Below, piece by piece: positions 13,342 through 63,990 of a DNA stretch of 64,000 nt. Both the position numbers and the translations under genes were made by a program. The stretch is from an uncultured Candidatus Binatia bacterium. Lineage in GTDB: Bacteria > Desulfobacterota > Binatia > HRBIN30. Position 1 is the stretch's first letter; every line of letters starts with the position of its first letter. The DNA lies in the NCBI GenBank assembly GCA_964371655.1, contig CAYJOD010000007.1, positions 81,145 through 145,144 of the forward strand, given 5' to 3'. The notes under the pieces are model-generated. The model did not search any database. It was not told where the DNA came from and was given only the letters and a program-made list of their open reading frames with translations.

Positions 13342-13499
13342 TGAGGCTCCGTTCTACTCCATCCGGACCCGCCGCGCTCACAGCGAGCGGCGTGATTACA
13401 TCGGAGAACCCCGCGCAGCGCAATCGCCGTCCGCGCCCGGTCGTCGGGTCGGTTGCAGATCAACGGTACGCCGGCGCGATGAGCACGCGGGAGAGAGCC

Positions 13500-13632
13500 C
13501 TCGAATCACCGCTCCCTAACGGTCGCGGCTCCGGTCGAGGTCCGCCGGTTTTCGGCATGTCAGAGCCGCGCGCGTAAGCAAGCGGTCAGCAGGTGGATGC
13601 TTCCCTCGAGGCACGGCATGCCGTCCATCTCC
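13500..13632 (+). repeat. F3 element copy in the divergent hflX / methyltransferase promoter region
   Basis: About 85% identical to 2188-2321 over roughly 135 bp. Confidence 0.8.
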
Positions 13633-13721
13633 AGTCTCAAACCCACATTTTTGCTCGGGTGCACTCGCGCCCGTGGCGTGAGGCGAGGAACGCCGGTACA
13701 TCTGTGCGACAAGGAGAAGAA

Positions 13722-23912: not shown

Positions 23913-24001
23913 CCCGGTTCACCGGGTCAGGCCGGCTTTGCCCGCCAATTGAGATGGAGCACCCTTCGATACGCCGCCAAGAGAAGGCGGCTACACCGCG
24001 C

Positions 24002-24304
24002 GAGAGGGGAGTGTCGATTTTCTCCGCAACAGCCCGCCGCTCGGAGAATGGAAAACAGGAAACCGGAAACCGAAAATGGAAAACCGGCCTTTCTGCGTGA
24101 GTATTGCCCAGTTTCCGGTGCCCGGTTTTCCATTTCCTGTTTTCCATTCGGCTTTATCGACAGTCTCAGAGGGCGGGGGTGAGGGATCTACTTTCCCACG
24201 CGGAGCTCCGCCACACGTCCGCCGCAGGGCTCCGGAGTGCGGGCCCATCCCCGCCGCCTCGGTTCCTCACCCTAACCCGCAAGTAATGCGGGCGAGGGAG
24301 CTGG
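24002..24304 (-). repeat. F1 element (24002-24185, inverted orientation) fused to F2 element (24176-24304)
   Basis: gagaggggagtgtcgattttctcc...ggagaatggaaaacagg...ccattcggctttatcgacagtctcagagggcgggggtgagggatc...cctcaccctaacccgcaagtaatgcgggcgagggagctgg. Confidence 0.8.
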
Positions 24305-24361
24305 CTTTGCAAACCTCAACCGCAGCGGTTTGCGTCGCGACGTCCACGCACCGCAGCGCAG

Positions 24362-25981: not shown

Positions 25982-26249
25982 GAATTTCCCCTTCCTCGCT
26001 TGCTTTGGCTGCATCCTATCACGGTCACCTGCGATCGGAACCTTCATTTCATGCAACCGTCTAGCCGTATGAACTTGAAGGCTGCATGCACCCGAGGAGC
26101 AGCCCCTCGATACGCCGCCAAGAAAGGGCGGCTACTCGGGGCGAGCGGTTTGGTTTGTATGCCCAGCAGCTCTTGTCCGTTCGTCCCGAGAAGACCCCTC
26201 CTGAGCCACTAGCGAATCGTTCTTACCAACATGTTGAGAGAACGCGACA

Positions 26250-26395
26250 GCGTGGATGCATGGCCTGCCGTGCATCTACGGAAACACTCACCCGCTGACC
26301 GCTTGCTTACGCGCGCGGCTCTGCCATGGCGAAAACCTGCGGACCTCGACCTGAGCCGCGACCGTCAGGGAGCGGTGATTCGTGGGATCTCCCAC
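26250..26395 (-). repeat. F3 element copy (inverted orientation)
   Basis: The reverse complement aligns along its full length with 2188-2321 and 13500-13632. Confidence 0.8.
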
Positions 26396-26450
26396 ACCTG
26401 TATTACGAAATCTTGTCGGCGTGCGAGGATTGTCGAGTCGTGGCGCAAAG

Positions 26451-26627
26451 CCAGCTCCCCTAGCCCGCAATACTTGCGGCAGAGGGTTAGGGTGAGGGAA
26501 CCGAGGCGACGGGGATGGGCCCGCACTCCGGAGCCCTGCGGCGGACGTGTGGTGGAGCTCCGCGTCGGGAAAGCGGATCCCTCACCCCCGCCCTCTCCCG
26601 CAGTGATGCGGGAGAGGGGGTGCTTCC
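26451..26627 (-). repeat. F2 element copy with terminal tctcccgca(a/g)t(a/g)(c/a)t(t/g)gcgg(c/g)agaggg hairpins
   Basis: Shares ccgcagggctccggagtgcgggcccatcc and ccctcaccctaaccc segments with 24176-24304, 57780-57882 and 60378-60569. Confidence 0.75.
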
Positions 26628-26836
26628 AAACACCGGCGTGCGTTGCAGGCGTCAGCTCGCGCTAGGTAGGCGCCTTCTCGGGCGCCGTATCGAAGGGCTC
26701 CCAGGGGCCGTATCGAGGGGCCGCTGTCGCCCGGTTTCTTCCCGACAGAGGGCGCCCCCGGCGCTGACGGAGGACTCTATTGCTCCTTCCTTACAAGACA
26801 GATAAAGTAAGCTATCTAAGACTAGGGAGGAGAGCG

Positions 26837-31539: not shown

Positions 31540-31736
31540 CCAGCTCCCCTGAGACTGTCGATAGATCCGAATGGAAAACAGGAAACGGAAAACCGGGAAC
31601 CGGAAACTGGGCAATGCTCACGCAGAAAGGCGGGTTTTCCATTCTCGGTTTCCGGTTTCCTGTTTTCCATTCTCCGAGCGACGGCCTGTTGCGGAGAAAA
31701 TCGACACTCCCCTCTGGGAGCGGGTTAGGGTGAGGG
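31540..31736 (+). repeat. F1 palindromic element copy
   Basis: gagactgtcgatagatccgaatggaaaacaggaaacggaaaaccgggaaccgg...ttccggtttcctgttttccattctccgagcgacggcctgttgcggagaaaatcgacactcccctctgggagcgggttagggtgaggg. Confidence 0.8.
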
Positions 31737-31795
31737 CTCTTCGCTTCAGGCGGCCCGGCATGTGTTCGGCGAACATCTGACTCAGGACAAACTAG

Positions 31796-45149: not shown

Positions 45150-45400
45150 GGTAGGGTGCGGGGGTTCTGGGGTTCTGGGGTGCGGGAGTGCGGGAGTGCG
45201 GGGGTTCATCGAGCAAGGTTCAGCGGTTGTAGCGGCACCCTCAAGACTCATGAGATCAGATCGCAGCGCGGGTTGACGCCCGCGTTCGAATGAAGACAAC
45301 CGACTCAGATACACTGAGAAGGCACCCCCGAACCCCAGCACCTCAGCACCCTATGAACCCCCGCACCCCCGCACCCCAGCACCCCCGAACCCTTCCACGT
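45150..45400 (+). repeat. Inverted pair of tandem heptamer-like arrays (gggtgcgggggttctggggttctggggtgcgggagtgcgggagtgcggggg ... cccccgcacccccgcaccccagcacccccgaaccc)
   Basis: Sits between mutL and miaA. The track ORF 45290.. translates the right arm as PRTPAPQHP repeats. Confidence 0.7.
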
Positions 45401-46303: not shown

Positions 46304-46332
46304 GACCTCCGAGGCTGTGAAGAGTTTTCTGG

Positions 46333-46410
46333 TCTGGTGGCGCAGGCGTCTCTGCCTGCGCAGCCGGGCAGGCACGGAGGCCTGCCCCACCAGTGCCTGG
46401 TTCTTACAGA
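46333..46410 (-). repeat. F8 element copy
   Basis: Reverse complement of the 9588-9660 motif. Confidence 0.65.
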
Positions 46411-46658
46411 ACCTCGCACAATATGGTGACAGGGAGCGGTAGAGAGATGTCCGTTCGTCCCGAGTAGGAGCCCTCCTGAGTAGCGAAGCGTATCGAAGGG
46501 TTTTCCGGGCTCCGTATCGAGGGACAGGTGAGGCGCATGAATTTTTCAGGTCAGTGCTCTCGCTCCGAAGTCTCAGCAATTGCTTCACACCAAAGTCGCC
46601 CTTGCGGCTCCGGTCTATGCTCGATAGCTTTGACTGCACAGATGGAGTCCCAACGACG

Positions 46659-50304: not shown

Positions 50305-50861
50305 TCCGCGAAGGCCACGGCGAACGATGGACGTCGGCGACAACCTCGACGTGTTTCGGCGCCTTGAACGCGGCGAGGCTCACAGATTGCGTGCGAGCTC
50401 CCTGTGGATCAAGTCGTCATCCGCGGATGAGCGGCCCTCGCTGAGCTCCTGAAGTCTGAGGCCCGAAGCCTGAAGCCCACGCCGAATCCCATCGACCGCG
50501 TTGACTTCCTCTCTCTTTCACGCGATATGCGGCGACGCTGCTGGTGTCAAAGGGAAGTCGGTGTAATGCCGACACGGCCCCCGCCACTGTAACTGGAACG
50601 AACGCGGCAGATTCGCCACTGTCCGAAGGGATGGGAAGGCGCCGCAAGTAGGTCGCCGGAAGTCAGGAAACCTGACCCAACAGCACGTTCGAAGTCCTCC
50701 GGGGTGTGAGGATGAGATTGCTGTAGGCCGTCTCCTTCATACCCGGAAGCGCTTAGGCGCGACCGGGTTTCTTGTTTGCGGCAGCAACCTCCCATTCTCG
50801 CTCAGCGGCCCGGCGTGTGTCCGCGTTTCGCATCGGAGCGCCAGAAACGGGAGGTTTCATC

Positions 50862-52292
50862 ATGCGCGTTTTCTCTTGTCGGTATTCTCACAACCCTAAC
50901 CCAGTCAGCGGCCGCCGGCGCGACGCGATGGTTGCAGCAGCCGTGCTTGCCCTCGCGACGGCGCCGGCACAAGCGACAATCACAGCTTCGGCGGGATACA
51001 TCTACAGCAGCCTGGCGGTCGGCAACACCACGCAGAGCTGCGTTGCCGCCGCTCCGGGCGGCACCTTCGTCGGCGTTGGGCCTGGGTACACCGCCAACGC
51101 CAACTCAATCGTGCAGGTGAGCGAGTCGGGAGCCGTGCGTACGGTGGCGACCGGGTTCAACTCGATTTCGGATTGCGCCTACGACGTCGCCACCGACGTC
51201 CTCTACGTCGGCGACAACGCCGACAGCGGCGATCTCCCGGGCGCCCTCACCGGCGACACCGTGTTCGCTCTTCCCGCCGCCTCCACGGCGACGGGTCTCA
51301 GCGCCGTCGGCCATGAGCTGGTCCCACAAAATAGCGTGCCCGCGGTCGGTGGAATCGCGATCAACTCCGCGGGGGATGTGTTCGCCGCCGACTCGACCGG
51401 TGGCGGGGCGGGCACGGTGCAAAGGATCACGCCCAGCCAGTCAACCTTTGCCTCACCCTTCGACTATACCGCCGGTCTCGCGTTCGACCCGAGCGACGGG
51501 ACCCTGCTGGTGTCCGAGAGCACATCCTCCTTCGACTCGAAGATCACACGCTACAGTGCCGCGGGTGCTTTCGTCTCGACATTCGCGGGTCCCAACACCG
51601 CGTTCGGTTCGTACGACCTCGCCTTCAGCCACGACGGCTTTCTTCTCGCCACCGGCAGCGGCAACATTGCCGCCTTCGACTCGGTGGGAAACCAAAGCAC
51701 GTTCGCCAGCGGCTTTTCATTCCCCACCGGGATTTCGACGAGCTCGTTTACCGGCCGTGTCGAGATCCTCGATAGCTTCTCGGGCACGGCGAGCGATTCG
51801 ATGGTCCACCGCTTCACACCCATTGCCAAGCTTGTCCCCGGCGGCAGCCGAGCCGGCACCGAATGCATCCATGAGCTCTATGGACTCGAGTTGGTCGCGA
51901 CACGACCAGACCAGACACCGCGCAGTGCCATCTGCGTCGACGGCGACGCTTGCGACGCCGACGGCGTGGTCAACGATCAATGCGTCTTTCCGGTCGGGTT
52001 CTGTTTCAAGGTAACGGACCCACGTTTTCCAACCTGTCCGAACAACAATGTCTCCGACGTCGCCATCACCAGCAGACCGACCTCAGCTGGATTGACGGCG
52101 CTCTCAGAGCAGATCCAGGCCACGCTGCCGATCACCGCGCCTTCGTGCTTCTTCAGCGACGGGATCACGGTTGCGGTGAAGACTACAACGAGAGGGAAGA
52201 GGAGCGGCAGCGGCAAGGTCAACGTCAGGGCAGCCACGGCAGCCGGCAGAGACAACGATACCGTTCGCCTGGTTTGCCAACCGGCCCCTTGA
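50862..52292 (+). CDS. Secreted repeat protein (beta-propeller-like repeats, Cys-rich C-terminus)
   Basis: GGGAGG RBS. Signal peptide MVAAAVLALATAPAQA, repeated GxxxVAxDxxGN-like segments, C-terminal CxxxxC clusters. Confidence 0.5.
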   Translation: MRVFSCRYSHNPNPVSGRRRDAMVAAAVLALATAPAQATITASAGYIYSSLAVGNTTQSCVAAAPGGTFVGVGPGYTANANSIVQVSESGAVRTVATGFNSISDCAYDVATDVLYVGDNADSGDLPGALTGDTVFALPAASTATGLSAVGHELVPQNSVPAVGGIAINSAGDVFAADSTGGGAGTVQRITPSQSTFASPFDYTAGLAFDPSDGTLLVSESTSSFDSKITRYSAAGAFVSTFAGPNTAFGSYDLAFSHDGFLLATGSGNIAAFDSVGNQSTFASGFSFPTGISTSSFTGRVEILDSFSGTASDSMVHRFTPIAKLVPGGSRAGTECIHELYGLELVATRPDQTPRSAICVDGDACDADGVVNDQCVFPVGFCFKVTDPRFPTCPNNNVSDVAITSRPTSAGLTALSEQIQATLPITAPSCFFSDGITVAVKTTTRGKRSGSGKVNVRAATAAGRDNDTVRLVCQPAP

Positions 52293-52408
52293 GATGAGCC
52301 ACGTCATGTGGAGTGCGGCGGCCCTTCGACGCGGCAGAGGACAAGGTCGCCGCACTGGGGTTGGACGGTAGAATATGCCACCGGGTTTGAATCTTGGCAT
52401 CGGAGCTC

Positions 52409-52960
52409 CAGGCCTTGGTGGTATAGGCTTCCAGCCACATCATTACACACAACTCGGCATGCACGCGTATCTGGATTCTGGACCCCGAAGGGGTCGGAGG
52501 AATTAGCCGGTGGTTGAGCGAAGCGATACCACCGGATCATACGTGGCCCCCGTATTTCGCACCCCGGTAGGGGTGCAAGCACATCGTGCTCAGCGGGGCG
52601 AGAAGGCTTGCGACAGCTGGCACCCCTACCGGGGTGCACAATCTCCGGCCCGGAAGCCGGTGGTATCGGCCGGTGGCCTCAACCCACCGGCTAATCGCTG
52701 TCATCCCTCCGGGATGCTCCGGGAAGCGCCAAGGCCGGGCTGCGAGTTGTGTGTAACGATGTGGCTTCCAGCCTGTACCGCCAAGGCTCTTCCGGCCTCC
52801 AAATCTTCTCAAGAGACTTGCGTCCAATCATGGGTTGATCGGATCCACCGCTTCGATGGTTGATCCCACCCTTCGACGAAGAGCCATTTGCTAATGCTGG
52901 CTACGACCTGCTCTATAGAAAATGCCCGATGGTACAGGCTGGAAGCCTATACCACCGGGC
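52409..52960 (+). repeat. Cluster of F6 palindromic elements (GGTGGTATAGGCTTCCAGCCTGTACCACC and CATCATTACACACA variants) plus long hairpins (gcaccccggtaggggtgc...gcacccctaccggggtgc)
   Basis: Copies at 52409-52466, 52749-52795 and 52928-52960. More copies at 58981-59035, 59166-59216 and 63926-63990. Confidence 0.75.
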
Positions 52961-52977
52961 CGGCAGTCGCCGACCAA

Positions 52978-54000
52978 ATGTCCCAACCCCAGAGCCGGAA
53001 CAAGCTTCCGCACTCCAAACGTGGACTAGTTGCCGTCGTGGCACTGCTCCTGTGGCCGGCGCTTGCGGTGTGGGCGGCGAGTGATCCGTTCGCGGACGAA
53101 GTTGTCGCCTTCATCGCGGGCGCCCACGCCGGCTTCGGCGCCGACCACTTTCCCAACGTCGTCCTCGGTCCACCCGTCGCCGCCGGCGACCTGCAGGGTT
53201 CCACCGATGTGCTGTCGCTCGGCGACGGCGGCAGCATCGTCCTGCGTTTCGACGAGCCGGGGATCTGCGATCGGCCGGGCCCTGACTTCATCATCTTCGA
53301 AAATGCTTTTCATGTCGGCAGCGCCGACGGTCCGGTGTTCGTCGAGGTCGGTATCGTCGCCGTCAGTGAAGATGGAATCCACTTCGTCGAATTCCCCTAC
53401 GACGCGACGAGCTTCGCCGGCCTCGCCGGCAGGACGCCGGTCTACAGCAATCCCGACAACGGCATCGATCCAACCGACCCGGCCGTTGCCGGTGGCGACG
53501 CCTTCGATCTGGCGACGGTCGGATTGGCATCGGTGCGCTACGTGCGCATCACCGACCCGGGCAACGCCATCCCCGACTCCGGCAGCCGCATCGTGCCCGG
53601 CAACTCCAACGGCTTCGATCTCGACGCGATCGCGGCAATCCACACTTGCCAGGGTGACGCTCCAACCGCGACCCCCTCGCCCACCCCGACACCGACGCCG
53701 GCGTTGTCGCCACCACAAACGATGCAGCCCAGCGCCAGTCCGACCCTCCAATTCCCGACGACCACTCCGACACCGACGCTCACCGTCACCCACACGGTTA
53801 CCAGCGCGCCCCTAGCCACGCACACGCCCCGGCCCGGCGACGTCGACGGAGACGGTAAGCTCGATGACCATGACCTCTCCGCAGTGATCCGTGCGATCTT
53901 CGCAGCCCCGGTTTCGACCAGCGCCGATGTCAACCGCGATAGCCTGGTCTCTGCCGCGGATTGCTCGTGGTTGGTCATTGCCGTGGGAGGGGTGGAATGA
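52978..54000 (+). CDS. Secreted protein with Pro/Thr-rich linker and C-terminal dockerin/EF-hand-like DVDGDGKLDDHD...DVNRDSLVSAAD repeats
   Basis: Signal peptide LVAVVALLLWPALAVWA. Start is inside the F6 repeat region. Confidence 0.55.
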   Translation: MSQPQSRNKLPHSKRGLVAVVALLLWPALAVWAASDPFADEVVAFIAGAHAGFGADHFPNVVLGPPVAAGDLQGSTDVLSLGDGGSIVLRFDEPGICDRPGPDFIIFENAFHVGSADGPVFVEVGIVAVSEDGIHFVEFPYDATSFAGLAGRTPVYSNPDNGIDPTDPAVAGGDAFDLATVGLASVRYVRITDPGNAIPDSGSRIVPGNSNGFDLDAIAAIHTCQGDAPTATPSPTPTPTPALSPPQTMQPSASPTLQFPTTTPTPTLTVTHTVTSAPLATHTPRPGDVDGDGKLDDHDLSAVIRAIFAAPVSTSADVNRDSLVSAADCSWLVIAVGGVE

Positions 54001-54027
54001 CGCAGGGGTGCAGGTTCTCGAAGACTG

Positions 54028-54095
54028 CTCCAGAAATGGTGGGGCAGGCCTCCGTGCCTGCCGGGCCGCGCCCGCAGGCACGCCTGCGCCCCCCA
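54028..54095 (+). repeat. F8 element copy
   Basis: gtggggcaggcctccgtgcctgccgggccgcgcccgcaggcacgcctgcgcc. Confidence 0.65.
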
Positions 54096-54220
54096 AAATA
54101 GCGCCAGACGGTTTTAATAGTCCGGGAGTCATTGGAAGTAATTGCTCGTATACCAACACAGTCAGGGCGCGCCGCCGCGCGCCCCTACGCCCTCGGGTCC
54201 TTCTCGTAGGGGCGCATGGC

Positions 54221-56248
54221 ATGCGCCCTCTTCCGTGGGTTTTGCGAAACTCTCCCTTGGCCTGCGCCGTCATGTTCGCGGTTCTCTTCGAACACACGGT
54301 CATGGCGCAAGATTCACAAACGATGGAGCCCGTCGTCGTCACCGGCAAAGCCATTCACCCGATCGAAGAGCGCGCGCCCACGACGTTCGCCACACAGATC
54401 GATCCGTCCGAGCATACTGAGCAGGCCGAGACGGTGACCGATGTCCTGGCCGAAAGCGTCGGCACCAGCGTACGTCGCTTCGGCGGTCTCGGCTCGTTCA
54501 GCACCATCTCGATTCGCGGCTCGGCGTCCAACCAGGTGCAGATCTATCTCGATGGGATTCCACTATCGCGCGCGCGCGATGAAACCCTGAACCTGGCCGA
54601 CCTGCCGCTCGACAGTCTGGAACGCATCGAGGTCTATCGCGGCTCGACACCGGTAGGCTTCAGCACCGCCGGCATCGGCGGCGTCGTCAACCTGGTCACC
54701 AAGAAGCCAAGCCTGGAGCCGCTGACGCAGATGTCCGCGTCCTACGGCTCCTTCGAAACCCGCAAGGTCGTGGCGTCGCACTCGCAGAAGGTCGGCGGCT
54801 TCGACGTGCTCGGGCACGTTTCCTATCTCGGCAGCAAGGGCGACTTCCCCTACATCGATGACCGCGACACGGCCAATCCTCTCGATGACCGCGAGCGGAC
54901 CCGACAAAATAGTTGGTTCGACTCGACCGAAGGCTTGCTCAAGATCGGGCGCGATCTTCCGAACGGCGTACGCGCCGATCTCACCAGCGACTTCTACTGG
55001 CGCAATCAAGGTCTGCCACAAGTCGGTCACGACGACCCGAAGGGCGCGACCCTCGCGGAGATGCGCTCTCTCAACTACCTGCGTTTCACCAAGGACAAGC
55101 TGGTCGTCGACGCGCTTGCCGGACAGCTGTCGGTGTTCGGCAGCTACGAACGTCATTCCCTTTCCGACCCTCGCGGCCAACTCAACGGCAGTCAGGCGCA
55201 GACCAATCGCTTCACCACCGTCGGCGGCGGTAATTTCACGCTCACCTACACAGCGTCGACATGGAATGAGCTGAGTTGGTTCACCGAGCTCTCACACGAA
55301 CGTTTCGACGCCACCAACGAGCTCGCCACAGTCTCCGACTATCCCGATCAAACACGACTCGACGTGAGCACGGCTCTACAGGATCGGATCAGCGTTTTCG
55401 ACGGCATGCTCTCGTTGTTGCCTGTACTGCGCTACCAGCGCCTCGAAGATCACTTCAGCACAACCGACCCGGCCGGTGAGCCGATCGGATCGTTGCGGCG
55501 CACACACGACCTGTGGGGCCCGTCGATCGGCGCGCAGCTCGAGCCGTGGGAATGGCTCAGCGTGCGCGGCAACCTTGGACGCTATCAGCGTGCTCCCAAC
55601 TTCACCGAGCTCTTCGGGATGCGCGGGTTTGTAAACGGCAACGCCAAGCTCGTGCCGGAAGAAGGCCTCAACCGTGACATCGGCTTCCGACTCCGATCTG
55701 GTCGCCTGGGTTACGCCGACGAGCTGCTGTTGGAGTACGCTTACTTCAACAACGACGCGACGGACCTCATCGTATTCATTCAGAACTCCGCGTCGGTCTT
55801 CGTGCCGACCAACATCGGAGCAGCGCGTCTGCGCGGCCACGAGCTCTCCACGCACGCCGTGTTTCTCGACCATATCGGTTTCGATCTGAACTACACGCGG
55901 CAAGAGACGACGAATCTGACATCGAGCGACACCTATTGGCAGCGCCAACTACCCGGGCGACCGCGCAACGAGTGGTACACGCGCCTGCAGCTCTTCAATG
56001 CCTACGGCAAGCTCTTCTACGAGCTCAATGTCAGCGACGGCAATTATCTCGACCAGGTCAACTACGGCCGTGTGCCGGCGCGCGACATTCATACCGTGGG
56101 TATCGCCGGCAACCCGCGTCCGTGGCTGCGGCTCGCGTTCGAGGCGCGTAACCTCACCGACAATGCAGTGCGCGATTTGCAGGGATTCCCGCTACCCGGC
56201 CTTTCATTCTTCGGAACCGTGCAGGTTCAGCTAGGAGGGGCCACATGA
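54221..56248 (+). CDS. TonB-dependent outer-membrane receptor (BtuB/siderophore-type)
   Basis: Plug domain VVTGKAIHP...SFSTISIRGS..QVQIYLDGIP, 22-strand barrel. Start uncertain. Confidence 0.8.
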   Translation: MRPLPWVLRNSPLACAVMFAVLFEHTVMAQDSQTMEPVVVTGKAIHPIEERAPTTFATQIDPSEHTEQAETVTDVLAESVGTSVRRFGGLGSFSTISIRGSASNQVQIYLDGIPLSRARDETLNLADLPLDSLERIEVYRGSTPVGFSTAGIGGVVNLVTKKPSLEPLTQMSASYGSFETRKVVASHSQKVGGFDVLGHVSYLGSKGDFPYIDDRDTANPLDDRERTRQNSWFDSTEGLLKIGRDLPNGVRADLTSDFYWRNQGLPQVGHDDPKGATLAEMRSLNYLRFTKDKLVVDALAGQLSVFGSYERHSLSDPRGQLNGSQAQTNRFTTVGGGNFTLTYTASTWNELSWFTELSHERFDATNELATVSDYPDQTRLDVSTALQDRISVFDGMLSLLPVLRYQRLEDHFSTTDPAGEPIGSLRRTHDLWGPSIGAQLEPWEWLSVRGNLGRYQRAPNFTELFGMRGFVNGNAKLVPEEGLNRDIGFRLRSGRLGYADELLLEYAYFNNDATDLIVFIQNSASVFVPTNIGAARLRGHELSTHAVFLDHIGFDLNYTRQETTNLTSSDTYWQRQLPGRPRNEWYTRLQLFNAYGKLFYELNVSDGNYLDQVNYGRVPARDIHTVGIAGNPRPWLRLAFEARNLTDNAVRDLQGFPLPGLSFFGTVQVQLGGAT

Positions 56249-57513
56249 TCGCGCGCGTCATCGCAGTTTGCGCCGTGTTGCTGGTGGCCGCGACGAGACT
56301 GTCTGCACAGCCCTGCCCGGGCGACTGCGACACGAGCGGCGGCGTTGGCCTAGAAGAGATCGCCAGCGGGGTGCAGATCGCCCTCGATGCGAGTCGATTC
56401 GACAGCTGCACGCCGGCGGATGGCGACAACGACGGAGTGGTGAACGTGGAGGATCTCGTCCGTGCCGTCGATCGCGCCGACAACGGTTGCGCGCGCCAGC
56501 AGCAGGCATTCGTGGTGGCGACCGACTTCCAGACCGGTTCGTTCGCCACCGTCGGTCTCGCTGCACCACGGCAGGTGGTGCCCAGCGACCCCTCTCGTGT
56601 CGTCGGCAGCGATGCCGTGGTGCGCACGCACGCGGGCGTCGTGTACGTCCTGAACCGCTTCCTCGCCAACAACATCCAGGCCTTCGACTTCGCGAACGAC
56701 TTGCGCCCGACCTTTCAATGCTCGACCGGCTCCGGAACCAACCCGCACGACATCGCCGTCGTCAGCCCGCACAAGGCGTACGTGACCGCTTACGAGACCG
56801 CGCAGCTGCTCATCGTCAACCCGTCGCCGCGGCCGGACTGCGCCGACTTCGTGAGCGGCGGGATCGACCTGTCGGCGTTTGCCGACGCCGACGGTGTGCC
56901 GGAGATGGATCAGATGGTCATCGTCGGCAAGCGACTGTTCGTGTCGCTCGAGCAGCTCGACCGTCGTAACTTCTTCGCACCGGCACGCAACGGAATCCTC
57001 GTCGTGATCGATACCGAGCACGATACCGTCGTCGGCTCGATCGCCCTGAGCGGCGGCAATCCGTTTGCCTCGACCAAGGGACTGCCCGTCATCAACGGCG
57101 ACATTGTGATATCGGAGAGCGGGCACATCGGAGTCAACGACGGAGGGATCGAGCGCGTGAATCTTGCCAACCAAACGGCTTCCGGCTTCTTCATCAGCGA
57201 AGCAGATCTCGGCGGCGACCTCACCGACTTCGTGATTGTGTCGGCGCGGCTGGGCTACGCGGCGGTGTCCGGTGAGGCTTCGACCAAGGTCGTCGGCTTC
57301 GATCCCTCACAGCACCGCGTCCTGCGCACGGTGTACGATCGCGGTGGCTTTGTGCCCGACATCGAAGTCAACGATCGCGGCGAGCTGTTCGTGAGCGACC
57401 GGACCTTCAGCCGTCCCGGCCTGCGCATCTACCGCGCCGCCGACGGCGTCGAGCTCACGACGGGAGTGTTGCCGGTAGGGCTGCCGCCGTTCGACCTCGT
57501 GTTTCTGCCATGA
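56245..57513 (+). CDS. Secreted YncE/YVTN-like beta-propeller protein with N-terminal dockerin-like Ca-binding repeats
   Basis: ATGA overlap with the receptor gene. Signal peptide, then CPGDCDTSGGVGLEEI...DGDNDGVVNVEDLV. Confidence 0.6.
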   Translation: MIARVIAVCAVLLVAATRLSAQPCPGDCDTSGGVGLEEIASGVQIALDASRFDSCTPADGDNDGVVNVEDLVRAVDRADNGCARQQQAFVVATDFQTGSFATVGLAAPRQVVPSDPSRVVGSDAVVRTHAGVVYVLNRFLANNIQAFDFANDLRPTFQCSTGSGTNPHDIAVVSPHKAYVTAYETAQLLIVNPSPRPDCADFVSGGIDLSAFADADGVPEMDQMVIVGKRLFVSLEQLDRRNFFAPARNGILVVIDTEHDTVVGSIALSGGNPFASTKGLPVINGDIVISESGHIGVNDGGIERVNLANQTASGFFISEADLGGDLTDFVIVSARLGYAAVSGEASTKVVGFDPSQHRVLRTVYDRGGFVPDIEVNDRGELFVSDRTFSRPGLRIYRAADGVELTTGVLPVGLPPFDLVFLP

Positions 57514-57585
57514 GGAGTGTGGCACGGCAGAGCCCCTTGCGGGCTGCGCTCGCAGCCGCAGCTGCGCCGGTGTTGGGAAGCGCGC

Positions 57586-57882
57586 CCTCTCCCGCAACAC
57601 CTGCGGGAGAGGAGACTGTCGATGTTCTCCGCAACAGGCCGCCACTCGGAGAACGGAAAATCAGAAACCGGAAACCGAAAATGGAAAACCGGCCTTTCTG
57701 CCTGAGCATTGCCCAGTTTCCGGTTTCCTGTTTTTTGTTTTCGGTTTTGCATTCGCGTTTATCGACACCCTCAGAGGGTGGGGGTGAGGGATCCAATTCA
57801 TCGCAACCTTTGCTGCGCCCATCCGCGCCGCGTCGGTTCCCTCACCCTAACCCCCCACAAGTAATGCGGGCGGGAGCTGGCC
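57586..57882 (-). repeat. F1 element (57586-57790, inverted) fused to F2 element (57780-57882), inside the uptake gene cluster
   Basis: Same core as 1342-1446 and same F2 tail as 24176-24304. Confidence 0.8.
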
Positions 57883-58028
57883 TGGGAGCCCCAACTTGGA
57901 AATCGTCCCGCGGCGACAAGATTCTTGGGCTGGCCTGGGAGCGCCGGCATCTTGCCGGCGCGGAGAACGGATTCGCGCCGCTTAGAAGGCGGCGCTCCCA
58001 GGCAGGGCAAGGCACCGGGCATTTTGGG

Positions 58029-58898
58029 TTGCGAGCATTGCTCGCGGTCGGCTTTGTGCTCTGCGTTCTGTGTTTCAATTCTTCCCTTGCGCACGCCGCG
58101 CCGGCGCGCATCGTCTCGCTAGCACCGTCCGTGACCGAGTCCGTCTTCGCCCTCGGTCTCGGCGATCGTCTGGTCGGTGTATCGGTGTACTGCGACTATC
58201 CGCCAGGAGTTGAGAAGATCGACCGCGTCGGCACCTTTCTCACGCCCAACATAGAAGCCATCCTTGCCAAGCGGCCCGATATCGTCCTCGGCGTCCCCTC
58301 GCCGGGCAACCGCGGTCCGGTCGAAGAGCTGCGCCGGCTCGGCGTGCGCGTGGTCGTGGTGGATCCAACCACGATCGACGAGATCAAGCAGGCACAGATC
58401 GATCTCGGGATCGCGCTCGACGTCGAAGCCGCAGCGCACGAGCTGGTGCGTGGCATCGACGCCAGGATCGAGCGTGTCGGCGCCGCTCTGCGCGACGTGC
58501 CCGAGCGCAAGGTATTGATGGTCGTCGGGCAGACGCCGTTGATAGCGGTGGGGAGAGGAACCTATCTCGACGAGTTGATTCGCCTGGCCCACGGCATCAA
58601 CCTGGGTGCCGCAGCCGGCGGCAGTTGGCCGCGGTTGAGCATCGAGTTTGCGATCGCGGCGGGGCCGGAGGTGATCATCGATACGACGATGGGCAACGAG
58701 GAGCAGACCGGCGCGGCGGCCAGCCTCGATTTCTGGAAGAGCTTCGCGACGATCCCGGCGGTCAAGAACGGGCGCGTGCACGGCTACAAGCAGTATCAGC
58801 TGCTGCGCCCCGGCCCGCGCCTGCCCGAGGCGTTGGAGACGATCGCGCGAATCATCCATCCCGAGGCCTTCAGCGAAAGCGGTGCACCGTCACGATGA
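58029..58898 (+). CDS. ABC transporter periplasmic substrate-binding protein, BtuF/FecB (TroA-like class 8) family
   Basis: Signal peptide, then RIVSLAPSVTESVFALGLGDRLVGVS... The 5' 170 codons of the track ORF translate the repeat. Proposed TTG start at 58029 is tentative. Confidence 0.7.
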   Translation: MRALLAVGFVLCVLCFNSSLAHAAPARIVSLAPSVTESVFALGLGDRLVGVSVYCDYPPGVEKIDRVGTFLTPNIEAILAKRPDIVLGVPSPGNRGPVEELRRLGVRVVVVDPTTIDEIKQAQIDLGIALDVEAAAHELVRGIDARIERVGAALRDVPERKVLMVVGQTPLIAVGRGTYLDELIRLAHGINLGAAAGGSWPRLSIEFAIAAGPEVIIDTTMGNEEQTGAAASLDFWKSFATIPAVKNGRVHGYKQYQLLRPGPRLPEALETIARIIHPEAFSESGAPSR

Positions 58899-58980
58899 TC
58901 CGGGGTGAGCCCTATTGCCGGAAACGTCGCCGCTTTGCAGGGACTCGGGGTAGGCCTACGGGCGGCGCACTGGAGCTTGG

Positions 58981-59216
58981 TCCTTTGGCCGGCGATCGCC
59001 GGCCCGGTGGTATAGGCTTCCAGCCTGTACCACCGGGCACTTGCTCTAGCGCGGGTGACAGCGCGCATCCGCAAGAAACTGTTCGCTGCTGGCGAGCATC
59101 AACCAGCGAATCGGCAGATCCGATCCATACACCAATGTGCTCGACTGTCTCGACAAGGTTGGAGGCCGGAACAGCCTTGGTGGTACAGGCTGGAAGCCTA
59201 TACCACCAAGGCCTGG
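58981..59216 (+). repeat. Two F6 palindromes between the SBP and permease genes
   Basis: cggtggtataggcttccagcctgtaccaccgggc and ttggtggtacaggctggaagcctataccaccaagg. Confidence 0.75.
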
Positions 59217-59304
59217 AGCTTCGACGCTCAGGTTCAACCCGGGTGCCACATCCAAAGGGCAAGACTGCGAAATGCCGCCTTCCATATGGCACAGGGAATC
59301 GGCC

Positions 59305-60318
59305 ATGTCGTACTTGACCAAAGCCCACTTCGCGCGAGTCATGCTGGGGCTGGCGGCGCTCCTGCTCGCCACGATCGTCGCCGCGTGCCTGATCGGCAGC
59401 GTGCACATCGATCTTTGGCGCGCCCTGCAACGCGGCCTGCCGCAAAACGTCGACGCCGTCATTCTCTTCGAGACGCGGCTGCCACGAGTGTTGCTGGCGG
59501 CGATTGTCGGCGCGGCGCTGGCCGCCGCCGGTGCGGCGCTGCAAGGTCTATTGCGCAACCCGCTTGCCGAGCCTCATCTCATCGGTATCTCCGGCGGCGC
59601 GGCGCTGGGCGCGGTCGCGGCGGTGATTGTCGGCGGGCGCCAGATCCTGGCAGAGGCGGCGCTGCTGCCGCTGGCGGCATCCGCGGGGGCGCTGCTGTCG
59701 ATGGCCATCGTCTACCGTCTCGCGCTCGTGCATGGACGCCTGCAGCCCTACGTCCTGCTGCTTGCCGGTGTCGTCTACAATGCCTTCACCGGGGCGCTGA
59801 TCATGTGTGTCAACGCGATCGCCGATCTTTACCAAGCCCAAGGTATCCTCTTCTGGCTCATGGGTAACTTGGGCACGCACAGCTACACCCTGGTCGCCGC
59901 CATCAGCGTCTACGTACTCGCCGGCAGCGCCTGGTTACTGTCCCACGCGCGTGCCCTCAACGTTCTCAGTCTCGGGGAAGAAGGCGCCGCACAGCTCGGC
60001 GTCAACGTCGATCGCGCCCGGCGCGCCGTGTTCTTCGGCTCGTCGCTGCTGGTCGGCGCGGTGGTCTCGGTCAGCGGCATGATCGGGTTCGTCGGGCTCA
60101 TCGTCCCGCACGTATTGCGGCTGCTCTTCGGCGCCGACCACCGTCTATTGATTCCGGCTTCGTTTCTTGCCGGTGCGATCTTCCTGATTTGGGCGGACAC
60201 GATCGCGCGCACGGTCCTCGGTGTCGTCGAGGTTCCGGTCGGCGTCGTCACCGCGCTGTGTGGCGGGCCGTTCTTCGTCTACCTGCTCAAGCGCGAAGGG
60301 ACACGGATCGTCGGATGA
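59305..60318 (+). CDS. FecCD/BtuC-family ABC permease
   Basis: Ten TM helices with a FecCD signature region. Confidence 0.85.
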   Translation: MSYLTKAHFARVMLGLAALLLATIVAACLIGSVHIDLWRALQRGLPQNVDAVILFETRLPRVLLAAIVGAALAAAGAALQGLLRNPLAEPHLIGISGGAALGAVAAVIVGGRQILAEAALLPLAASAGALLSMAIVYRLALVHGRLQPYVLLLAGVVYNAFTGALIMCVNAIADLYQAQGILFWLMGNLGTHSYTLVAAISVYVLAGSAWLLSHARALNVLSLGEEGAAQLGVNVDRARRAVFFGSSLLVGAVVSVSGMIGFVGLIVPHVLRLLFGADHRLLIPASFLAGAIFLIWADTIARTVLGVVEVPVGVVTALCGGPFFVYLLKREGTRIVG

Positions 60319-60377
60319 GCACGAACACCTCATCGCGCGCTACACCCGCAACCGAAGCAGCGCCGACGGTTGGAAGC

Positions 60378-60569
60378 ACTCCCTCTCCCGCAATACTTGC
60401 GGGAGAGGGTAGGGGTGAGGGATCCGACTTCAATGTTTGCTGCGCACGTCCGCCGCAGGGCTCCGTCCTCCGCAGGGCTCCGGAGGACGGGTCCGGAGTG
60501 TACCCATCCGACGGCCCTCACCCTAACCCTCTCCCGCGCCGGAATTGGCGCGGGCGAGGGGAGCTGGCC
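60378..60569 (-). repeat. F2 element copy between the permease and ATPase genes
   Basis: ctctcccgcaatacttgcgggagagggtaggggtgagggatcc...ccctcaccctaaccctctcccgcgccggaattggcgcgggcgaggggagctggcc. Confidence 0.8.
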
Positions 60570-60586
60570 TTGCTGAGGTTTTCGGG

Positions 60587-61414
60587 ATGAGCACAACCAC
60601 GGTCTTGGAGGCGGGCCACGTCGTGTTCCGATACGGTGACAACCGCGTGCTCGACGACGTGTCGTTGGCGCTGCGCGGGGGTGAGATGTTGGGCGTGATC
60701 GGACCCAACGGCTCGGGGAAGTCGACGCTGCTGCGTTTGCTCAGCGGTGTGCTGCGGCCCGCAGCCGGCGAGGTCGAGCTGCACGGACGCGCGGTCGGCA
60801 GCTACACCCAGCGCGAGCTGGCGCGTCGCGTCGCCGTGGTGCCGCAGGAGACGCTGATCGAGTTCCCATTCTCTGTGACCGAGGTGGTGCTGATGGGGCG
60901 CTCGCCGCATCTCGGCGGCTTTGCCTTCGAGGGCGATCGCGACATCGAGGTGGCGCAGCTCGCCATGCAGCGCACCGGCGTGTTGCATCTCGCCAAGCGT
61001 TCGATTCACGAGCTCAGCGGCGGCGAGCGCCAGCGTGTCATCCTGGCGCGCGCGCTGGCGCAGGAAGCGCAGGTCTTCCTACTCGACGAGCCGGCTGCCT
61101 TTCTCGATATCCGCCACGCCGTCGAGCTCTACGACCTGCTCGCCGATTTGCTGAAAGAGGGAAAGAGCGTGCTCACCGTCCTGCACGATCTCAACCTCGC
61201 GGCGATGTACTGCGATCGCGTCGGCTTGTTGAAGGGCGGGCGCCTGATCCAGGTCGGCGCACCGACCGACGTGATCACCTACGCCAACATCACCGCGGCG
61301 TACGAGACCGAGGTCTATGTCGACACCAACGACATCACCGGTGCGGTGAACGTTCTGCCGCTGAGCCGCGCCTACCGCGAGCACCTGCGCCGCGCCGCAG
61401 CGGACAAGAGCTGA
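60587..61414 (+). CDS. ABC transporter ATP-binding protein (FecE/BtuD-like)
   Basis: Walker A GPNGSGKST, LSGGERQRV signature, Walker B FLLDEP. Confidence 0.9.
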   Translation: MSTTTVLEAGHVVFRYGDNRVLDDVSLALRGGEMLGVIGPNGSGKSTLLRLLSGVLRPAAGEVELHGRAVGSYTQRELARRVAVVPQETLIEFPFSVTEVVLMGRSPHLGGFAFEGDRDIEVAQLAMQRTGVLHLAKRSIHELSGGERQRVILARALAQEAQVFLLDEPAAFLDIRHAVELYDLLADLLKEGKSVLTVLHDLNLAAMYCDRVGLLKGGRLIQVGAPTDVITYANITAAYETEVYVDTNDITGAVNVLPLSRAYREHLRRAAADKS

Positions 61415-61730: not shown

Positions 61731-63809
61731 GTGATCGACTACGTCTTGCAAGTCTTGCCCTACTGGCCTTATGCCGTGGCCCTCTTGGCTCTGGTCATGG
61801 TCTACTCGTCCATCGTCATCGTGGGCGGCACCGAGATCGCCGTGATGGAGCGTAGGTATTTCGGAACCAAGATGCCCCAGGGTCGTGTGATTGCGCTCGC
61901 GAACGAGATCGGTATCCAGGCGCGCACCCTCGGGCCGGGGCTTCATTTCCTCATCCCCTTCATCTACGCGGCAAGGAAGTATCCGTTCGCCAACATCACC
62001 GAGAACGAAGTCGGCTTTGTGGAGTCGATCGACGGCGATCCCGTGCTTCCGGGCAAGATCTTCGCCCGCGTGGTCGAGGGGCACAATTCCTTTCAGGACG
62101 GCGAGTCGTTCCTCAGGAACGGGGGGCAGAAGGGTCCGCAGATTCAGATCCTTCCTCCCGGCACCTACCGCATCAATCCCGTGCTCTTCAAAGTGCGCAA
62201 GGACAAGGCCAGAACCATCGACAAGGGGATGATCGGCGTCGTGAGCGCGCTCGACGGCCAATCGATCGCTGCCGGAAGGCTGCTCGCACACAAGGTGGAG
62301 GGGCACAGCAACTTCGAGAACGGGCAGGCCTTCCTCGACAACCAGGGCCAGAAGGGTCCGCAGATCCAGATCCTCCTGCCCGGCACCTACCGCATCAATC
62401 CCGATCTCTTCAAAGTCGAGATCCTCGACGCCACCGTGATCCCGCCGATGAAGATCGGGCTGGTGACAGCGCTCGATGGGCGGCCCCTTCCCGAAGCGGA
62501 GTACGTGGCCAAGTCGGTGCCGGGACACAGCGACTTCCAGGACGCGTCCCAGTTTCTTCAGGCAGGCGGCGAGCGCGGCCCGCAGTTCGATGTGCTCCGG
62601 CCGGGCACGTATTACGTCAATCCGCTCATGTTCAACGTCGACATGGACGACGTCGCGGTGGTCGAACGCGGCCAGGTGGCGGTGGTGGTCTCGAACGTCG
62701 GTGACGAGCCGGTCCAGGTGCGCGAGGCGATCGAGGCGGCGGCGCAGAAGGAGGGGGCGGAGGCCGGCAGCGACCTGTACCGAAACATTGAGAAGCGTTT
62801 CGAGACCGGGATCGAGCGCTACGTGGTACCCAAGGGTGTCCGCGGCATCCAGCAGGAGGTGGCCGGGCCGGGCGTGTACTACCTCAATCGCCGCGCCTAC
62901 ATCGCCTACATCGTCGACACCACGAACATCACCATCGACTGGGATGACGCCAAGGAGACGCGCTTCGACCCGCTCCGGGTGATCTCGCGCGACGGCTTCC
63001 AGATCAGCGTTTCGGTCAAGGTGGTCATCCGCGTACGACCCGATCAGGCCCCCTACATGGTGGCCAAGATCGGTTCGATCGAGAACCTCATTCTCCACGT
63101 GATCCACCCGATGATCGATTCGAGCTTCCGCAACCAGGCGTCCTCGACGTCGGCGATGAACTTCATGCAGGACCGGCAGGATGAGCAGCGCAAGGCGGAG
63201 GACCGCGCCAAGGCGGAGCTCGATCGCTACCACGTGGAGTGCGTGTCGGTGCTCATCTGTCAGATCAACCTGCCCCAGGACCTGATGGACACGCAAACCA
63301 AGAAGATCATCGCCCAACAGCAGCAGGCGATGTACCAGGATCAGCAGAAGGCCGAGCAAACCCGCATCGCGACCGAGAAGACGCGCGCCGAGGCGGATCA
63401 GCAGAAGAACCTGGTCGAGGCCGAGATCGGCGTGAAGATCGCCGAGCAGAACAAGCAGAAGGCAATCCGGTTCGCCGAGGGAGAGTCCGAGAGCATTCGG
63501 CTCCGGGCTGAAGGTGAGGCGAGGGGGATCAAGGCAAACGGCGATGCGGAAGGCGCGCGTATTCTGGCGATCGGCGAGTCGACGGCAAAGGCCTACGAGC
63601 TGCAGAACAAAGCGGTGGGCCAGCAGGGCGTCACCGCGATCGAAATCGCCAAACAGATCGCCGCGGGCAACATCAAGGTCACACCGGACCTCCTGGTCCA
63701 GGGCGGAGACAACCTCGGCGGACTGCTGGCCGCGTTCCTGACTCGAATCATCACCGGAGACGCGGCGCGGACAATGGTCGCCGAGCCCAGAAAGACGGAC
63801 GACGCGTAG
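61731..63809 (+). CDS. Flotillin / SPFH-domain family protein with triplicated N-terminal segment
   Basis: Three repeats of (V/L)EGHxxFxxGxxFL.NxGQKGPQIQIL.PGTYRINP.LFKV, then a flotillin-like coiled-coil tail (EAEIGVKIAEQNKQKAIRFAEGESESIRL...). Confidence 0.7.
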   Translation: MIDYVLQVLPYWPYAVALLALVMVYSSIVIVGGTEIAVMERRYFGTKMPQGRVIALANEIGIQARTLGPGLHFLIPFIYAARKYPFANITENEVGFVESIDGDPVLPGKIFARVVEGHNSFQDGESFLRNGGQKGPQIQILPPGTYRINPVLFKVRKDKARTIDKGMIGVVSALDGQSIAAGRLLAHKVEGHSNFENGQAFLDNQGQKGPQIQILLPGTYRINPDLFKVEILDATVIPPMKIGLVTALDGRPLPEAEYVAKSVPGHSDFQDASQFLQAGGERGPQFDVLRPGTYYVNPLMFNVDMDDVAVVERGQVAVVVSNVGDEPVQVREAIEAAAQKEGAEAGSDLYRNIEKRFETGIERYVVPKGVRGIQQEVAGPGVYYLNRRAYIAYIVDTTNITIDWDDAKETRFDPLRVISRDGFQISVSVKVVIRVRPDQAPYMVAKIGSIENLILHVIHPMIDSSFRNQASSTSAMNFMQDRQDEQRKAEDRAKAELDRYHVECVSVLICQINLPQDLMDTQTKKIIAQQQQAMYQDQQKAEQTRIATEKTRAEADQQKNLVEAEIGVKIAEQNKQKAIRFAEGESESIRLRAEGEARGIKANGDAEGARILAIGESTAKAYELQNKAVGQQGVTAIEIAKQIAAGNIKVTPDLLVQGGDNLGGLLAAFLTRIITGDAARTMVAEPRKTDDA

Positions 63810-63925
63810 CGACTCGGCCGCGTCGAAGACGCGCTCCCGTCCGCGCCGCCTGCGCATTTGCGCACGCTCTCTTCCATCGTGCGCGTCGCCGTAGCCGCCG
63901 TCGCCAGAGGTTGTCTCGCAACCTC

Positions 63926-63990
63926 GGCAAGGTGGTACAGGCCAAAGGCCACATCATTACACACATCGGCTTGCATCGATTTGTTTCTGG
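63926..63990 (+). repeat. F6 element copy
   Basis: ggtggtacaggccaaaggccacatcattacacacatcggcttgcatcg. Confidence 0.65.

Follow-up and report, generated by a model that had tools for sequence, protein, structure and literature searches.

Palindromic repeats at five of the six gene junctions of a riboswitch-headed cobalamin-uptake operon from Candidatus Binatia

Gene organization of the operon

We analysed a 64-kb stretch of DNA from an uncultured Candidatus Binatia bacterium (hereafter the window, to which all coordinates refer), in which seven genes on the + strand form one operon with a cobalamin riboswitch in front, and in which palindromic repeats lie between most of these genes. The original prediction concerned the downstream half of the operon, and proposed that the repeats found there could act as determinants of RNA stability or processing, or may have broken up the operon. 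Names with an L number denote metagenome contigs, and relatives were located via homologues of the beta-propeller gene of the operon, which carry the name Candidatus Binatia. The riboswitch and the seven genes are as follows.

50513–50694, + strand: cobalamin riboswitch aptamer at the operon head (Rfam RF00174, 93.9 bits, E 4.6e-22)
50862–52292, + strand: operon gene 1, 476 aa, no Pfam family (gene call in L001; orthologues in L007 and L008)
52978–54000, + strand: dockerin-domain protein gene (Pfam Dockerin_1; N-terminal alignment with L007 and L008)
54221–56248, + strand: TonB-dependent receptor gene (Pfam Plug and TonB_dep_Rec_b-barrel; gene call)
56245–57513, + strand: YncE/BtuG-like beta-propeller gene, 422 aa (family profile against PDB YncE-family chains, E 3e-4)
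58029–58898, + strand: substrate-binding protein (SBP) gene, from TTG (Pfam Peripla_BP_2; alignment with the SBPs of L007, L008 and L010)
59305–60318, + strand: FecCD-type permease gene (Pfam FecCD, E 3e-91)
60587–61414, + strand: ABC ATPase gene (Pfam ABC_tran)

The cluster is read as a B12 (corrinoid) uptake operon because a cobalamin riboswitch stands at its head and is kept there in relatives (L007 98–272, L008 5127–5321 and L025 7459–7623). This is the only riboswitch of the operon, and the arrangement is the same in relatives whose operon is compact. Two uncharacterized genes, for the 476-aa protein and the dockerin-domain protein, precede the TonB receptor gene, and the start codon of the dockerin-domain gene directly abuts repeat sequence on its 5′ side. 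All genes of the operon are intact, with 69–89% protein identity to their orthologues overall (permease, 88–89% to L008 and L010; SBP, 78–88%; ATPase, 76–81% to L010 and L008). The gene identities originally assigned around the gaps were borne out by Pfam for the receptor, SBP, permease and ATPase, and by a weak YncE-family profile match for the propeller.

The 422-aa propeller protein matched no Pfam family, and sequence searches of PDB with this protein and with the 476-aa product of gene 1 gave no match. The propeller family profile weakly matched chains of the YncE family or annotated as ‘putative surface layer protein’ (8okv, 8puj and 8p97, E about 3e-4). The protein may capture B12 together with the receptor, as a BtuG-like partner, and has an N-terminus similar to the calcium-binding motifs of EF-hands or dockerins.

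Three start codons have to be considered for the SBP. The start consistent with homology, judged by length against the orthologues, is TTG 58029, which lies 26 nt past the last hairpin of the preceding gap; it has no Shine–Dalgarno motif within about 15 nt upstream, the nearest AAGG being about 20 nt upstream. The start chosen by the gene caller, ATG 57864, lies inside a repeat of family F2, in the loop of its terminal hairpin. With either codon the SBP would start in or next to repeat sequence, as had been suggested. The ancestral SBP start, ATG 57510, lies 5′ of all repeats in the gap, is in frame with the SBP and overlaps the propeller stop codon as ATGA (57510–57513). The signal peptide of the SBP is predicted to be LRALLAVGFVLCVLCFNSSLAHA/AP, with cleavage after AHA. 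Shine–Dalgarno-like motifs precede the permease start (AGGGAA, ATG 59305) and the ATPase start (GAGG, ATG 60587).

Repeat elements at the gene junctions

Repeats were checked by self-BLAST of the window and by a repeat search. Five of the six operon junctions hold 220–700 nt of repeats with further copies in the window, the exception being the junction between the TonB receptor and propeller genes. Matches between copies had E-values of 1e-10 to 1e-63 and are therefore not chance matches. The repeats originally reported in the three gaps downstream of the propeller gene were all recovered at their reported positions. Beyond the original prediction, the junctions at 52293–52977 (0a) and 54001–54220 (0b) are also filled with repeats, the ATGA stop/start overlaps are retained, and stop-free frames run through gaps 1–3. 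The gaps and their elements are listed below.

52293–52977, + strand: junction 0a, about 685 nt of nested repeats (repeat blocks 52373–52436 and 52763–52995); relatives have an 11–16 nt spacer
52437–52762, unstranded: 326-nt MITE (miniature inverted-repeat transposable element) with 20-nt terminal inverted repeats, inside the centre of an F6 palindrome, with an 11-nt duplication GGCTTCCAGCC
54001–54220, + strand: junction 0b, palindromic repeat 54036–54093 and GC hairpin 54164–54188 (copies at 9587–9644, 46334–46391 and 10605–10629)
57514–58028: gap 1, F2 left arm, F1, F2 right arm and an extra hairpin
57539–57612, + strand: F2 left arm, hairpin CCCTCTCCCGC...GCGGGAGAGG, 80% identical to 60335–60408 and 90% to 26592–26638
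57603–57798, + strand: F1 element, a long A/G-rich versus U-rich hairpin with inverted ends GAGACTGTCGAT...ATCGAC
about 57790–57923, + strand: F2 right arm, matching 26409–26520 (78%) and 24194–24305
57934–58002, + strand: hairpin with a 13-bp GC-rich stem (predicted fold), single copy in the window
58899–59304: gap 2, two F6 palindromes in a 285-nt block
58967–59251, unstranded: F6 composite (285 nt), palindromes 59002–59038 and 59175–59211 with a 144-nt spacer
60319–60586: gap 3, one F2 copy
about 60327–60573, + strand: F2 element of gap 3, 72% identical over 244 nt to 26445–26661

The elements measure about 196 nt (F1), about 245 nt (F2), about 285 nt (F6 composite) and 326 nt (nested element). 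Other F1 copies, with 82–86% identity, lie at 1306–1486, 8056–8229, 23998–24193 and 31546–31715 (E 1e-45 to 1e-63). The F1 ends, GAGACTGTCGAT and ATCGACAGTCTC, are lengthened by CCCTCACCCTAACCCTCTCCC motifs, and the F2 ends pair imperfectly in the predicted fold; terminal motifs of the types CCCTCACCCTAACCCTCTCCC and GGGAGAGGG..GGGGTGAGGG are common to F1 and F2. The two 29-nt cores of F6 (59006–59034 and 59179–59207) are exact reverse complements of each other, and the 285-nt block recurs, inverted, at 52763–52995 and 52373–52436. The 20-nt inverted ends of the 326-nt element, of sequence ACATCATTACACACAACTCG, differ by one mismatch.

The F6 core, including a T.G/C.A asymmetry of its stem, is conserved beyond this genome: of nine unrelated JGI metagenome contigs, most carry the core exactly as it stands in the window. 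Such conservation is as expected of a recognition site of the repetitive extragenic palindromic (REP) type, and suggests that the site is constrained. In none of the F6 contexts examined in the nine contigs was the site a formerly overlapping gene junction, so they provide no additional test of the frames described below. Either the 326-nt element targets F6 loops, in the way that some insertion sequences (IS) target REPs, or its ends gave rise to F6 as a minimal derivative. The insertion region spans 52412–52787, and a similar junction between an F6 half and the element lies at the right edge of the window (63920–63975). No transposase or REP-associated tyrosine transposase (RAYT) was found among the 25 top Pfam families of 39 open reading frames (ORFs) of the window.

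Repeats make up about 6.6% of the window, in roughly 25 blocks with 3–5 copies per family in 64 kb, and the repeats in the gaps are therefore a genome-wide property rather than one of this cluster alone. The operon cluster, at 16% of the length of the window, contributes about 30% of all repeat bases.

Elsewhere in the window, at least six families are represented by repeat blocks in intergenic regions of every orientation (convergent, divergent and co-directional); some blocks are nested or composite, and the F1+F2 composite at about 24 kb resembles that of gap 1. Further blocks were found at 1119–1516, 2175–2332, 4623–4668, 8008–8305, 9587–9668, 13486–13643, 20456–20510, 23956–24310, 26096–26661, 31546–31789, 45154–45392 and 46312–46523.

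Insertion of the repeats into a compact operon

Next to the orthologous loci of relatives, the window lineage stands out by its gaps. In L007 (propeller 81% identical), the operon genes are separated by a 16-nt spacer or joined by 4-nt overlaps. The operon of L008 (propeller 69% identical) is likewise compact, save for one 383-nt gap between the propeller and SBP genes, and L010 (propeller 69% identical) has spacers of 41 nt and 51 nt and one 4-nt overlap. At junction 0b, the genes overlap in both L007 and L008. Across the three relatives, the junctions are 4-nt overlaps or 11–51 nt spacers, apart from the propeller/SBP junction of L008. Because the junctions of relatives are compact and the riboswitch stands at the operon head, the ancestral operon is read from these comparisons as compact and translationally coupled under one riboswitch, with insertions gained at five of six junctions in the window lineage. 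The original prediction that the spacers are repeats inserted into one former operon is supported by L007, L008 and L010, which lack them, and none of these loci shows the spacers as ancestral, non-repeat sequence.

Target-site duplications point in the same direction. The F2 element of gap 3 is flanked by a 10-nt direct duplication, GGATGAGCAC (60313–60322 and 60585–60594), which copies the stop/start overlap, and the permease/ATPase junction of L008 reads uninterrupted through this site (...GGCGGATGACAGCG...), with no insert. Excision of the 326-nt element together with one copy of GGCTTCCAGCC restores an intact F6 palindrome. The 383-nt propeller/SBP insertion of L008 consists of related elements and is independent, with a 7-nt duplication, CATGACG, at its flanks. 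Gaps 1 and 2 showed no clean target duplication. The structure of the window is agreed upon by six separate ENA metagenome assemblies, whose contigs are 99.4–99.9% identical.

From these results, we conclude with high confidence that the gaps are insertions of non-coding, palindromic, selfish mobile repeats of the MITE or REP-like kind, belonging to at least five families and partly nested.

Other contigs showed variation at the same junctions. The contig of the closest relative, L007 (7049–7083), ends 32 nt past the SBP stop codon, and the 15-mer GGGAGCTGGCCTTGC stands right after its SBP ATGA; in the window, this 15-mer occurs in the right ends of F2 only. This suggests that the L007 lineage carries a related repeat at the SBP/permease junction, which caused the assembly to break. 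Two loci considered as further independent repeat insertions were rejected, since their inserts are non-repeat sequence and their ATGA frames are closed: a 334-nt insertion at the propeller/SBP junction of L090 (3434–3767), within which an antisense 79-aa ORF is called (3464–3703), and an insertion at the permease/ATPase junction of L030 (about 4140–4420). Both were kept as negative controls. The presence or absence of 95 nt at junction 0b in L003 was rejected as evidence of mobility, as it falls on an N-containing scaffold join of poor sequence.

Landing sites and stop-free frames

Junction alignments showed that the elements landed on the ATGA stop/start overlaps or a few codons past them, and not in spacers, because the ancestral junctions had none. 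The SBP gene was entered after about 10 codons (MRSVARQSPL here, MTRFVDRGLPAL in L007), the receptor gene after about 8 codons of its ancestral 5′ end, and the permease gene after ATGATCC; in the ATPase gene, the start region itself was duplicated. The ATGA is retained at the left edge of each of these insertions, at 53997–54000, 57510–57513, 58895–58898 and 60315–60318.

We then counted stops in all six frames of the gaps. In each of gaps 1–3, a single frame of the six was free of stops, and each time it was the frame of the ATG within the ATGA. These bridge frames are as follows.

57510–58028, + strand: bridge frame 1, 173 stop-free codons running in frame into the SBP gene, giving a 462-codon ORF
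58895–59317, + strand: bridge ORF 2, 140 codons, with its stop (59315–59317) 10 nt past the permease ATG 59305 and a 13-nt overlap
60315–60590, + strand: bridge ORF 3, 91 codons, with its ATG on the permease stop and its TGA (60588–60590) overlapping the ATPase ATG as a second ATGA

One peptide predicted from the gap 3 frame is MSTNTSSRATPATEAAPTVGSTPSPAILAGEGR. The independent insertion of L008 gave a matching result: its sole open frame is that of ATG 11269, part of an ATGA, and the SBP (ATG 11656) is in frame with it. At junction 0b, the frame of ATG 53997 is open to 54209 in L001 and L002, which belong to the same population, with its stop 11 nt before the receptor ATG 54221.

The bridge frames have a flat GC content over the three codon positions (GC1/2/3, about 0.6 each), compared with a GC3 of 0.77–0.88 in the genes. 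This composition marks them as non-coding DNA of recent origin in which stops happen to be absent, rather than as coding sequence shaped by evolution, and the bridge peptides are probably functionless by-products. The 173-residue peptide of gap 1 had no match among 5.8 billion proteins, which shows that elsewhere such repeats are not often annotated as proteins or as parts of fused proteins.

The probability of the ATGA frame being open was estimated with dinucleotide-preserving shuffles of each insertion, and was 0.059 for gap 1, 0.026 for gap 2, 0.185 for gap 3 and 0.023 for L008. The product is 3e-4 for the three gaps of the window and 6e-6 for the four cases including L008. A second test, free of composition, asks for the chance that the sole open frame is that of the ATGA; for four cases this is (1/6)^4 = 8e-4, or (1/3)^4 = 0.012 if sense frames only are counted. 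Gap 1 gave rise to the idea, so that a fair test has to rely on the three cases examined after it, for which the shuffle product is 1e-4. As a control, we took five further gaps of the window that hold repeats and lie between genes on one strand; none of their 15 sense frames was open. The ATGA frame was also closed in the 334-nt non-repeat insertion of L090. In a non-operonic F2 copy at about 26.5 kb, no frame was free of stops over the tested segment.

Proposed translational continuity across the insertions

These observations suggest a mechanism by which the insertions could have been tolerated. Since the upstream ribosome-binding context of the old ATGs is unchanged, ribosomes should still initiate at the ATGA starts and would then enter the repeat. 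The stop-free frames would keep translation going over 270–520 nt of strongly folding RNA, and hairpins that would otherwise hide the next start site would be opened by the passing ribosomes. Delivery of ribosomes at that start would re-create coupling by termination and reinitiation and would limit Rho-dependent polarity, so that the downstream genes could stay expressed and under the control of the single riboswitch. Selection would have removed insertions that lack such a frame. This scheme fits models of coupling through RNA unfolding and reinitiation, and the Rho-dependent polarity of untranslated RNA (reviewed in PMC12548453). We thus lean, by a modest degree, towards the interpretation that the surviving insertions are those which preserve translational continuity and were let through by selection, a reading drawn from the frames and junctions above.

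Several observations weigh against this interpretation. Translation of the bridges is a prediction from the sequence of an uncultured organism. The hypothesis arose on gap 1, and for the three later cases the frame-choice probability is only 0.005 to 0.04. The four cases are not fully independent, as the F2 copies of gaps 1 and 3 agree in orientation and frame and the elements inserted in L008 are related to F2. Four of the five F1 copies have a frame that is open intrinsically, also where they lie between convergent or divergent genes, and F2 has few stop-prone positions (two or three motifs). In the window itself, TAG 54099 interrupts the ATGA frame of junction 0b, and junction 0a (685 nt) has no single bridge frame, yet is tolerated. 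Finally, the gap 1 frame places 173 extra residues ahead of the SBP signal peptide, which could hinder export; as speculation, the extended SBP might be exported via its internal hydrophobic segment and cleaved after AHA.

At junction 0a, the frame starting at 52294 is that of the dockerin gene; it contains three stops, with in-frame starts 3, 3 and 24 nt later (ATG 52375, GTG 52510 and TTG 52888), and may form a chain of reinitiating small ORFs. As a statistic, such a chain was rejected, because permissive rules let almost any sequence be traversed.

Of the alternatives to selection for translational continuity, the one that survives best, and which we consider rather improbable, is that the elements are neutral junk: the stop-free frames would be a coincidence of GC-rich, stop-poor elements, and each gene would be translated from its own start. 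The open frame of F1, present once per strand in nearly all copies, and the scarcity of stop-prone motifs in F2 are expected under this explanation, as are the modest probabilities of single gaps (0.03–0.19), the lack of a bridge frame at junction 0a and the Shine–Dalgarno-like motifs ahead of the permease and ATPase starts. Coincidence does not readily account for the joint shuffle probabilities, nor for the sole open frame being the ATGA frame in four of four cases when none of the 15 control sense frames is open. The stops in every frame of the F2 copy at about 26.5 kb, and a TTG 58029 that lacks a nearby Shine–Dalgarno motif, also argue against it.

RNA structure and transcription signals

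The predicted folding energies of gaps 1, 2 and 3 were −280, −208 and −152 kcal/mol, with z-scores of −6.5 to −5.4, and no shuffled sequence folded as well. In the predicted fold of gap 3, the start region of the ATPase gene is paired with the left end of F2; translation through F2 would free this region.

Structures of this stability recall the original suggestion that the hairpins determine RNA stability or processing, like the bacterial interspersed mosaic elements (BIMEs) of E. coli. Comparable elements are the REPs at malE–malF and the Correia elements cut by RNase III. The hairpins would shield RNA upstream of them from 3′ exonucleases or create cleavage sites, resulting in different levels of the SBP, permease and ATPase, and such an effect could coexist with that of the bridge frames. 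The F6 pair lies directly 3′ of the SBP gene; in the malEFG and hisJQMP operons of E. coli, REPs sit directly after the binding-protein gene. The identity of the F6 core in most of nine unrelated contigs, suggestive of a constrained site, agrees with this explanation, but is equally expected of a site recognized by a transposase or RAYT. RNase III cleavage of MITE-containing transcripts is documented (PMC10969869). On the other hand, the insertions are absent from all relatives examined, and any BIME-like effect is therefore incidental rather than evolved; despite the strong predicted folds, this lineage specificity argues against an evolved regulatory role. The same families also lie between convergent and divergent genes of the window, and the gaps match no Rfam family: a search of 52200–60700 at permissive E-values gave chance-level matches only (E 0.39 and 0.66). 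An RNA-level role also leaves unexplained why the ATGA frame is the sole open frame in each gap, and we consider it unlikely as the explanation of the gaps.

Transcription signals were then sought. No sigma-70-like promoter was found in the scanned region, although the promoters of Binatia are uncharacterized and the scan could miss them. Three terminator-like sites occur on the + strand of the region, a number equal to that in shuffled sequences, and none lies in a gap; no hairpin of a gap is followed by a U run on the + strand, as an intrinsic terminator would be. We therefore regard as very unlikely the second original suggestion, that of a broken operon. In such an operon, the hairpins would stop transcription or cause polarity, and the downstream genes would depend on new repeat-borne promoters without B12 control or be incipient pseudogenes. 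Untranslated-looking gaps of 270–700 nt are unusual inside an operon, MITEs are able to carry promoters (PMC10969869), and promoters of this class could escape a sigma-70 scan, but the genes are intact (GC3 0.77–0.88, 76–89% identical to orthologues), the ancestral ATGA junctions are retained, no promoter-like or + strand terminator-like sites were found in the gaps and the single riboswitch remains at the head.

Implications of the translational reading

The operon represents a clean natural experiment: the same seven-gene riboswitch operon is compact in relatives and is split here at five of six junctions by 0.2–0.7 kb of selfish DNA that forms hairpins, with all genes intact. The retained ATGA and the bridge frames suggest that tolerated insertions are those which keep ribosomes moving, and these sequences make it directly testable what translational coupling, RNA unfolding and Rho polarity each contribute. 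The evidence for translational continuity as a criterion of survival is a statistically supported, yet unproven, sign.

In an extension of this idea, which we regard as improbable, F2 and its relatives, and perhaps the F6 composites, would be adapted to colonize ATGA overlaps, duplicating the ATGA as they insert and carrying a built-in stop-free frame of suitable length, through which translation would pass. If true, they would be ‘translationally transparent’ MITEs with a strategy like that of mycobacterial interspersed repetitive units (MIRUs), evolved independently and with elements of up to 0.5 kb, and could invade even important coupled operons. The recurrent hits at such junctions, in the window, in L008 and possibly in L007, fit adapted elements and a purely selective filter equally.

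Sequence variation, annotation and neighbouring genes

Between the window and the six contigs L001–L006 of the same population, nearly all mismatches fall in 54002–54162 and 59012–59075, and about 10 kb of coding sequence is identical. Most are A>C or T>G transversions, in contigs of low coverage. Nine of them (54096–54160) are common to four or five contigs, with the window alone different, and one of these creates or removes TAG 54099. As the cause of these clusters, errors of sequencing or assembly at hairpins, or collapsed repeat copies, are more likely than real hypervariability or adenine mutagenesis of the kind caused by diversity-generating retroelements.

The repeats also mislead gene callers, which placed the SBP start within a repeat and called a spurious 70-aa gene over junction 0b (L001 7753–7965), and they probably break metagenome assemblies.

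The rest of the window is ordinary chromosome (MiaA, RelA/SpoT, MutL, HflX and PGI). Downstream of the operon, a Band_7-domain gene (692 aa) contains a direct repeat of about 184 nt (62011–62416, 73% identity, 222-nt spacing), which is probably an internal repeat of the protein.

Comparison with known repeat elements

MIRUs are the closest mechanistic precedent for these elements, which are not themselves MIRUs. MIRUs insert at start codons and carry an internal ORF coupled at −4 spacing, its ends lying over the stop and start codons of the neighbouring genes, so that translational coupling is kept (Supply et al. 1997, summarized in PMC12548453 and PMC3184786). Like MIRUs, the elements of the window lie between cistrons of an operon at sites that are empty in relatives, have short direct repeats at their flanks and are inserted at start codons. 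In gap 3 the ORF overlap of MIRUs is reproduced exactly, as the bridge ORF both begins and ends in an ATGA; gap 2 has the ATGA and a 13-nt downstream overlap, and gap 1 the ATGA and an in-frame fusion. No such internal ORF occurs at junction 0a, and at junction 0b it occurs only in the L001 and L002 versions. MIRUs are mycobacterial, 40–100 bp in length and often in tandem, whereas the elements here are 240–520 nt, strongly palindromic, nested, not tandem and of several unrelated families. In addition, the gap 1 frame fuses to the downstream gene instead of ending at its start. In sequence, the elements showed no relationship to MIRUs, and none is expected; the likeness is one of function rather than of family membership.

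F6 resembles REPs, BIMEs and REPINs in being an extragenic, imperfect palindrome of 29–39 nt with a conserved stem mismatch, arranged as an inverted pair. The pair follows directly after the SBP gene of an ABC importer, predicted to be co-transcribed in an operon, and the centre of an F6 palindrome hosts another mobile element; IS elements are known to target REPs (PMC3184786). F6 differs in its spacer, which is 144 nt instead of the short linker of tens of nt in BIMEs and REPINs, and in lacking a GTAG-type 5′ motif, and no RAYT is among the top Pfam families of the window.

The elements have the features of MITEs: a size of about 50–500 bp, terminal inverted repeats, target duplications (7–11 nt), dispersed copies and empty sites. 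Their non-coding nature is seen in the flat GC1/2/3, the lack of Pfam matches and the lack of homologues of the gap 1 peptide. MITEs known from operons, such as Chunjie of Geobacter uraniireducens, Correia of Neisseria and ERIC, are similarly 100–500 bp long, with duplications of 9–11 bp and stable RNA folds. Chunjie is inserted in a phosphate-uptake operon without destroying it (PMC10969869, PMC3184786), but is A+T-rich, whereas the families here are GC-rich. Compared with other bacterial MITEs, the present case differs in that five of six junctions of one operon are occupied, and no partner IS was identified in the window.

Rickettsia palindromic elements (RPEs) are inserted in frame in coding sequences and are tolerated as an extra peptide (PMC10969869). 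The gap 1 and L008 insertions are similar in lying about 3–10 codons inside the SBP gene, in frame and free of stops. RPEs, however, are about 150 bp, have a conserved peptide and lie inside mature protein domains, whereas the insertions here add 129–173 codons ahead of a signal peptide, with no coding-type composition.

Taken together, the elements of this operon are new repeat families of a known kind; they add to the repeats of the poorly known class Binatia, and represent an unusually complete invasion of one operon.

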